Shown: piece after piece, positions 41,715-41,843 of the stretch
How positions within the stretch are numbered: the stretch's first letter is position 1
Layout: every line of letters starts with the position of its first letter
Assembly: GCF_013167455.1 (NCBI RefSeq)
Contig: NZ_CP038328.1
Source of the DNA: Escherichia coli O157:H7
GTDB lineage: Bacteria > Pseudomonadota > Gammaproteobacteria > Enterobacterales > Enterobacteriaceae
Reading direction: 5' to 3' (one strand)
Length of the DNA stretch: 64,000 nucleotides
Notes under the pieces: generated by a model
What the model saw: the letters and a program-made list of their open reading frames with translations, nothing else
What the model was told of the DNA's origin: nothing
Database searches by the model: none
Made by a program: the position numbers and the translations under genes

Positions 41715-41843
41715 TCTCTTTGCCGGGTGCCTGTCGCCCGGCACTTAAATCTCTTTGGAAGGCGTCTCGCAATCTGCTGAATTTAGCGGTGAAGAGTGCG
41801 CAGCCGTTGCCTATACTCCAGGCAGGAAACTGGAGGATATCTC

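Follow-up and report, generated by a model that had tools for sequence, protein, structure and literature searches.

We are highly confident that the window analyzed here (the whole stretch of 64,000 nucleotides from Escherichia coli O157:H7) represents the idn-less allele at a polymorphic position, the slot between ahr and yjgR, and that the spacer separating these two genes is an ordinary intergenic region. The absence of idn is an ordinary difference in gene content of a known kind, and every RefSeq annotation of O157:H7 shows it. The K-12 arrangement, with five idn genes in the slot, is the less common form in the species, while the idn-less form is the majority state.

Organization of the ahr-yjgR junction in O157:H7 and K-12

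From the sequence and the list of open reading frames (ORFs), ahr ends at 41714 and the ATG of yjgR lies at 41844, leaving a spacer of exactly 129 bp that contains no idn genes. The initial annotation had described the two genes as directly adjacent and 129 bp apart, and the sequence, the ORF list, and the RefSeq annotation all bear this out. The gene names were taken from the RefSeq annotation of O157:H7 chromosomes, which were 100% identical to the window from 40653 to 43346 when this region was compared by megablast with 5,426 complete E. coli genomes. The product of yjgR matched the Pfam family HerA_C with about 842 bits (E = 1e-253). Given that 3,212 complete genomes have the identical contiguous arrangement, the adjacency of ahr and yjgR is not an assembly artefact; since the question is one of gene order, chance is irrelevant to it. 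Table 1 shows the features of the locus.

Table 1. Features of the ahr-yjgR locus (positions in the window, except for the last row)
Feature	Position	Strand	Basis or remark
leuX, tRNA-Leu(CAA)	40415-40499	-	ARAGORN; Rfam tRNA
ahr (yjgB), NADPH-dependent aldehyde reductase, 339 aa	40695-41714	+	RefSeq; Pfam ADH_N and ADH_zinc_N
ahr-yjgR spacer, 129 bp	41715-41843	+	Sequence, ORF list, RefSeq annotation
idn-less-specific segment, 90 bp	41715-41804	+	BLAST breakpoints and census; without K-12 counterpart
TCTCTTTGCCGG, first 12 nt of the spacer	41715-41726	+	Recurs in the K-12 idn segment near its yjgR-side end
Hairpin, 9-bp G+C-rich stem and 5-nt loop, followed by CUUAAAUCUCUUU	41721-41743	+	Fold; terminator-like scan hit
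yjgR upstream segment common to all alleles	41805-41843	+	K-12 homology resumes at 41805
-10-like TATACT	41812-41817	+	Kept in nearly all alleles and species sampled
GGAGG Shine-Dalgarno sequence	41832-41836	+	Seven bases 5' of the yjgR ATG
yjgR, HerA-like C-terminal domain (DUF853), 500 aa	41844-43346	+	RefSeq; Pfam HerA_C
Enterobacter slot gene	8217-9863 (E. cloacae DSM 26481), 8224-9930 (Enterobacter sp. Ag1)	-	Positions in the extracted loci; Pfam for E. cloacae

The statement in the initial annotation that idnK and idnDOTR lie between ahr and yjgR in K-12 proved correct. The MG1655 record gives the order lptG, yjgR, idnR, idnT, idnO, idnD, idnK, ahr, leuX, intB, and the alignment to K-12 that had been proposed as a check on this gene order likewise places ahr and yjgR apart in MG1655. 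Homology between the window and K-12 begins at the 3' end of leuX (40414), the O157 leuX island being located further left, and runs to the ahr stop codon with 97.3% identity by BLAST (40414 to 41714; 96.6% nucleotide identity for ahr itself). According to the BLAST breakpoints, it breaks at 41714/41715 and resumes across 41804/41805, continuing with 98.5% identity from 41805 to 44000. The K-12 counterpart of the 90 bp in between is a segment of 5,087 bp (7104 to 12190 of the extracted K-12 locus) containing idnK, idnD, idnO, idnT, and idnR, in which the stop codon of idnK is 3 bp from that of ahr and the stop codon of idnR is 77 bp from the start of yjgR. A BLAST comparison of the K-12 genes with positions 38001 to 50000 of the window gave no idn matches. 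The window consequently falls outside the K-12-type idn (GntII) locus, as the five idn genes are absent between ahr and yjgR, and within the E. coli idn-less allele, with contiguous genes and the 90-bp segment.

On the leuX side, positions 1 to 40414 of the window correspond to the O157:H7 leuX island (mapped through NZ_CP169546.1, 439605 to 480018). The first part of the island is a P4-like satellite that has genes for an integrase, ogr/Delta, a polarity suppression protein, and a primase-helicase and carries a type II restriction-modification pair, followed by a gene for a phosphorothioated-DNA-binding restriction endonuclease and a type II Zorya system (zorA2, zorB2, and zorE). Then come very large genes, coding for an STY4851/ECs_5259 family protein, for three DEAD/DEAH helicases, and for a SAM-dependent DNA methyltransferase of 1,644 aa; two of the helicases are complete (about 950 and 2,100 aa), and the third (>1,480 aa) extends past the stretch examined. 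On the other side, the yjgR-lptG intergenic region (43347 to 43506 of the window) measures 160 bp in O157, K-12, CFT073, ST131, JNE25-003, and TCM_B_2 and 118 bp in ATCC 25922, O111:H8, S88, 2014C-4423, and OX442407. Positions 43367 to 43402 have an 86% match to a K-12 site between holC and pepA, and the length variation is probably due to the presence or absence of a small REP-like repeat.

Allele frequencies among E. coli genomes

The census set comprised 5,426 complete E. coli genomes, 5,425 of which have the ahr-yjgR locus. The idn-less form, recognized by a single contiguous match spanning ahr and yjgR, was found in 3,212 of the 5,426 (59%), and the 90-bp segment in 3,222 genomes, at 90 to 100% identity and almost always as one copy per genome. 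The idn segment was present in 2,055/5,426 genomes (38%), at a median of one and a maximum of two places per genome and in no case on a plasmid. A third allele, in which ahr is largely deleted, accounted for another 151/5,426 (2.8%). The three classes total 5,418, against 5,425 genomes in which the locus is present, and the census is thus essentially complete, leaving at most a handful of idn-less genomes that could have idn elsewhere. E. coli genomes without idn are in the majority, and K-12 represents the less common form.

These figures bear on whether the O157:H7 idn genes might be present at another chromosomal position, the junction then reflecting relocation instead of absence. We consider this extremely improbable and found nothing in its favor. 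The 3,212 idn-less genomes and the 151 with the third allele leave 2,062 occupied slots, against 2,055 genomes with idn; genomes with idn nearly always have a single copy, none of them plasmid-borne; and in all five of the idn genomes sampled the genes were located between ahr and yjgR.

In the third allele, only a frameshifted ahr fragment of 236 bp is left, and the spacer is of a diverged idn-less type. In one example (NZ_OX442407.1, 8553 to 9078 of the extracted locus), it adjoins an island at leuX with dpdA, dpdB, and dpdE (7-deazaguanine DNA modification). Strain MLI104K2 (NZ_CP116925.1) was first taken as an intermediate allele with fragments of idnT and idnR, and this candidate was dropped; its interval of ca. 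900 bp consists mostly of homopolymer runs of C, G, and T and looks like a local long-read assembly failure, not biology. In the RefSeq annotation of this strain, the interval between ahr and yjgR (9100 to 9880 of the extracted locus) contains a hypothetical protein and a LacI-family pseudogene.

The same slot in other species

A scan with YjgR using one genome per species provided at least five close enterobacterial loci; among the matches listed, there were no Salmonella, E. fergusonii, or cryptic Escherichia clades. In E. albertii and Citrobacter werkmanii, ahr and yjgR are adjacent, with a spacer homologous to that of O157 (91 and 66% identity, respectively). In Citrobacter sp. FP75, the ahr-yjgR site contains idnK and idnDOTR, with junctions laid out as in K-12. 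In Enterobacter cloacae DSM 26481 and Enterobacter sp. Ag1, the slot is occupied by an opposite-strand gene of 548 to 568 aa, identified by Pfam in E. cloacae as a single-chain dihydroxyacetone kinase (Dak1 and Dak2). Judging from these loci, the polymorphism is not confined to E. coli but includes E. albertii, Citrobacter, and Enterobacter. The slot, located between the ahr stop codon and the region upstream of yjgR, is thus an old variable position in the family and has no hallmarks of a mobile element.

Contents of the spacer

The hairpin that follows the ahr stop codon is probably the intrinsic terminator of ahr, a prediction from its fold. A scan with a terminator consensus gave one hit versus 0.3 expected, and the tail after the hairpin (CUUAAAUCUCUUU) is only moderately U-rich (weak U tail). 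In C. werkmanii, a different sequence occupies this position and the hairpin is still formed, which would fit a conserved terminator role.

At the other end of the spacer, GTTGCCTATACTCC is kept in idn-less E. coli, E. albertii, C. werkmanii, K-12 (with idn), and E. cloacae (with the kinase insert), and it is present in Citrobacter sp. FP75 (with idn) with an A for the first G. It is not retained in Enterobacter sp. Ag1; in the other loci, the shared sequence resumes there, just upstream of yjgR. The region around TATACT is a putative yjgR promoter. A promoter scan of the spacer found no full sigma-70 match on the + strand, and the -35 region varies between alleles.

We also considered that the 129 bp might hide a functional element (small RNA, small protein, or repeat) in their own right, which we judge very unlikely. 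Between the hairpin and TATACT, a block of ca. 60 bp (CTCGCAATCTGCTGAATTTAGCGGTGAAGAGTGC) is shared with good conservation by E. coli and C. werkmanii, as might be anticipated for such an element, but this block lies at the expected site of promoter or operator sequences upstream of yjgR. Similarly, a 63-aa ORF with a TTG start (41720 to 41911) overlaps the spacer, but it enters yjgR out of frame, as expected of a mechanical ORF. No Rfam family matched the spacer at E <= 1 (the region from 40300 to 42000 gave only leuX and a subthreshold hit inside ahr), and the spacer as a whole folded no better than shuffled sequences (z = -1.17); on these two grounds, a hidden RNA was rejected. Against a repeat element is the single copy of the 90-bp segment per genome.

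Origin and relative age of the alleles

In the initial annotation, the junction was considered the empty-site configuration of another variable locus beside leuX. This reading is supported in that the locus near leuX is variable and idn is absent from it here. It is not the empty site of a mobile element, as a 90-bp sequence takes the place of 5,087 bp and hallmarks such as an integrase, an IS element, or terminal repeats are lacking. The genes of the K-12 idn segment are the five idn genes only, with integrase, transposase, and IS element absent, and its ends and junctions, when searched for terminal repeats in direct or inverted orientation, gave only chance-level short matches; a mobile-element explanation was rejected for these reasons. 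Nor does the idn-less allele have the structure of an empty attachment site, since it holds 90 bp absent from the occupied allele.

The 12 nt of TCTCTTTGCCGG that open the spacer are located in K-12 2 nt ahead of the sequence shared by both alleles. The 64-kb window and the 16-kb K-12 locus each contain a single copy of this 12-mer, in both cases at the allele boundary. This match may be a trace of the relationship between the alleles. A BLAST search for idn remnants in the 90 bp, using 7-nt words against the K-12 locus, found nothing beyond it. The pattern would fit an insertion of idn directly after the ahr stop codon together with the loss of ca. 78 bp of spacer. Because 78 to 90 bp of the idn-less spacer are missing from the idn allele, a single clean indel does not convert either allele into the other. 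Exchange between alleles would proceed by homologous recombination in the flanking genes and not by machinery encoded by an element.

As for polarity, we lean toward regarding the idn-less spacer as older than the idn arrangement in Escherichia. The preference is a mild one because, in Citrobacter sp. FP75, the idn genes are about as diverged from those of K-12 (79 to 84% identity for idnD, idnO, and idnT) as ahr and yjgR are (82 to 84%), so the idn arrangement could date back to the split between Escherichia and Citrobacter. The opposite polarity, in which an enterobacterial ancestor had idnK and idnDOTR between ahr and yjgR and the genes were deleted once or several times, including in the O157:H7 lineage, draws on this same genome, whose idn genes occupy this site with junctions like those of K-12 and have a divergence similar to that of the flanks. 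It also draws on the lack of mobile-element features in the segment that could explain a targeted insertion and on the deletions that do happen at the locus, most of ahr having been lost in 151 genomes. We nevertheless regard it as unlikely. A simple deletion is insufficient, given the 78 to 90 bp of spacer absent from the idn allele, and a spacer common to E. coli, E. albertii, and C. werkmanii would require a loss that was very old or was spread by recombination. In addition, the diversity of idn within E. coli is 5 to 10 times below that of the flanks, unlike what long vertical residence would produce, and its G+C content is also lower (40 to 52% versus 51 to 56% in the flanks).

The idn-less allele is not a recent deletion in O157. 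No other state is as frequent in E. coli, and the spacer also occurs in E. albertii and, in a more diverged form, in C. werkmanii.

Diversity of the idn segment and its flanks

Between K-12 and CFT073, both with idn, the idn segment differs by 0.84%, versus 4.9% for ahr and 5.8% for yjgR, and the jump in divergence starts within about 30 bp of each junction. Along similar lines, the idn segment differed by at most 1.1% among five E. coli strains or lineages that carry it, while a comparison of 11 E. coli strains over the 400 bp adjacent to the slot gave differences of up to 9.2% in ahr and 9.5% in yjgR. The maximum for the 5' 400 bp of yjgR is as deep as the difference between E. coli and E. 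albertii.

The flanks could have been expected to form two old haplotypes, each linked to one idn state. This was rejected, as flank haplotypes do not group by idn state in the 11-strain comparison. For instance, the 5' end of yjgR differs by 1.5% between ST131 (idn) and ATCC 25922 (idn-less) and by 8.2% between K-12 and CFT073 (both idn).

Both ahr and yjgR show unusually high diversity and a mosaic structure within E. coli. The 5' end of yjgR in the E. coli strain TCM_B_2 is 5.5% from that of E. albertii, nearer than to most E. coli. Beyond yjgR, lptG and lptF showed only 0.6 to 1.6% difference when K-12 was compared with three other E. coli strains.

We infer that the idn cassette would have a recent common ancestor in E. 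coli, from which it would have spread and been reshuffled through homologous recombination of the flanking sequences, and tracts originating from idn-less donors would end at the insertion boundary. A broader version of this model is that the slot holds at least two ancient alternative haplotypes (idn-less spacer, idn, and dihydroxyacetone kinase) across Escherichia, Citrobacter, and Enterobacter, with the E. coli idn cassette being young and recently spread within very old mosaic flanks. We put this forward only tentatively, as a possibility with the balance against it. If true, it would mean that a catabolic operon moves through a species purely via flanking homologous recombination. That a cassette of low diversity lies between flanks of very high diversity is a modest observation, in terms of population genetics, on how accessory operons spread next to the leuX hotspot.

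Metabolic implications

The GntII or L-idonate pathway consists of IdnK, IdnD, IdnO, IdnT, and IdnR. Based on what is known of this pathway, the strain is expected to lack the use of L-idonate or 5-ketogluconate through IdnD, IdnO, and IdnT. It is likewise expected to lack the second gluconate kinase IdnK, so that gluconate would be used via the GntI system. O157:H7 without this subsidiary gluconate/L-idonate pathway would provide a carbon-source contrast to K-12 relevant to studies of nutrient niches in the gut. The result also shows that K-12 is not typical at ahr-yjgR; overall, its importance beyond correct annotation is small.

In the literature, idn is treated as a variable trait, and we found no open-access statement on idn specific to O157:H7. 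The presence or absence of idnK varies among ST131 subclones, and the gene was not detected in H30-Rx JJ1886 and H22 S250 (PMC5369007). L-Idonate degradation genes are enriched in some non-O157 STEC associated with HUS (PMC4216125). Unlike JJ1886 and S250, the ST131 strain 5392 (NZ_CP103465.1) has an intact annotated idnK and a full idnDOTR; in this strain, the yjgR annotation is that of a pseudogene, owing to an internal stop (features 2914 to 3477 and 8040 to 9542 of the extracted locus).

Comparison with known variable loci

The closest known system is the K-12 GntII/L-idonate locus itself (idnK and idnDOTR; b4264 to b4268), which, like the slot in the window, is flanked by leuX-ahr and, at its opposite end, by yjgR-lptG-lptF-pepA. 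It differs in having five idn genes where the window has a 90-bp allele-specific spacer.

At the genome scale, Perna et al. are said to have catalogued, in 2001, the strain-specific segments of O157:H7 versus K-12 as K-islands and O-islands. The idn genes are likewise present in K-12 and absent from O157:H7, between conserved backbone. However, the idn slot is small and purely metabolic, its ends lack an integrase, a tRNA attachment site, and an IS element, and the allele on the O157 side is common to other species.

The tRNA-linked leuX islands also resemble the ahr-yjgR slot in having variable content at a fixed position close to leuX. In contrast to these islands, which have integrases and are inserted at the 3' end of the tRNA, the slot is located one gene away, without integrase or direct repeats, and its contents are catabolic genes of a housekeeping type, idn or, in Enterobacter, a dihydroxyacetone kinase.
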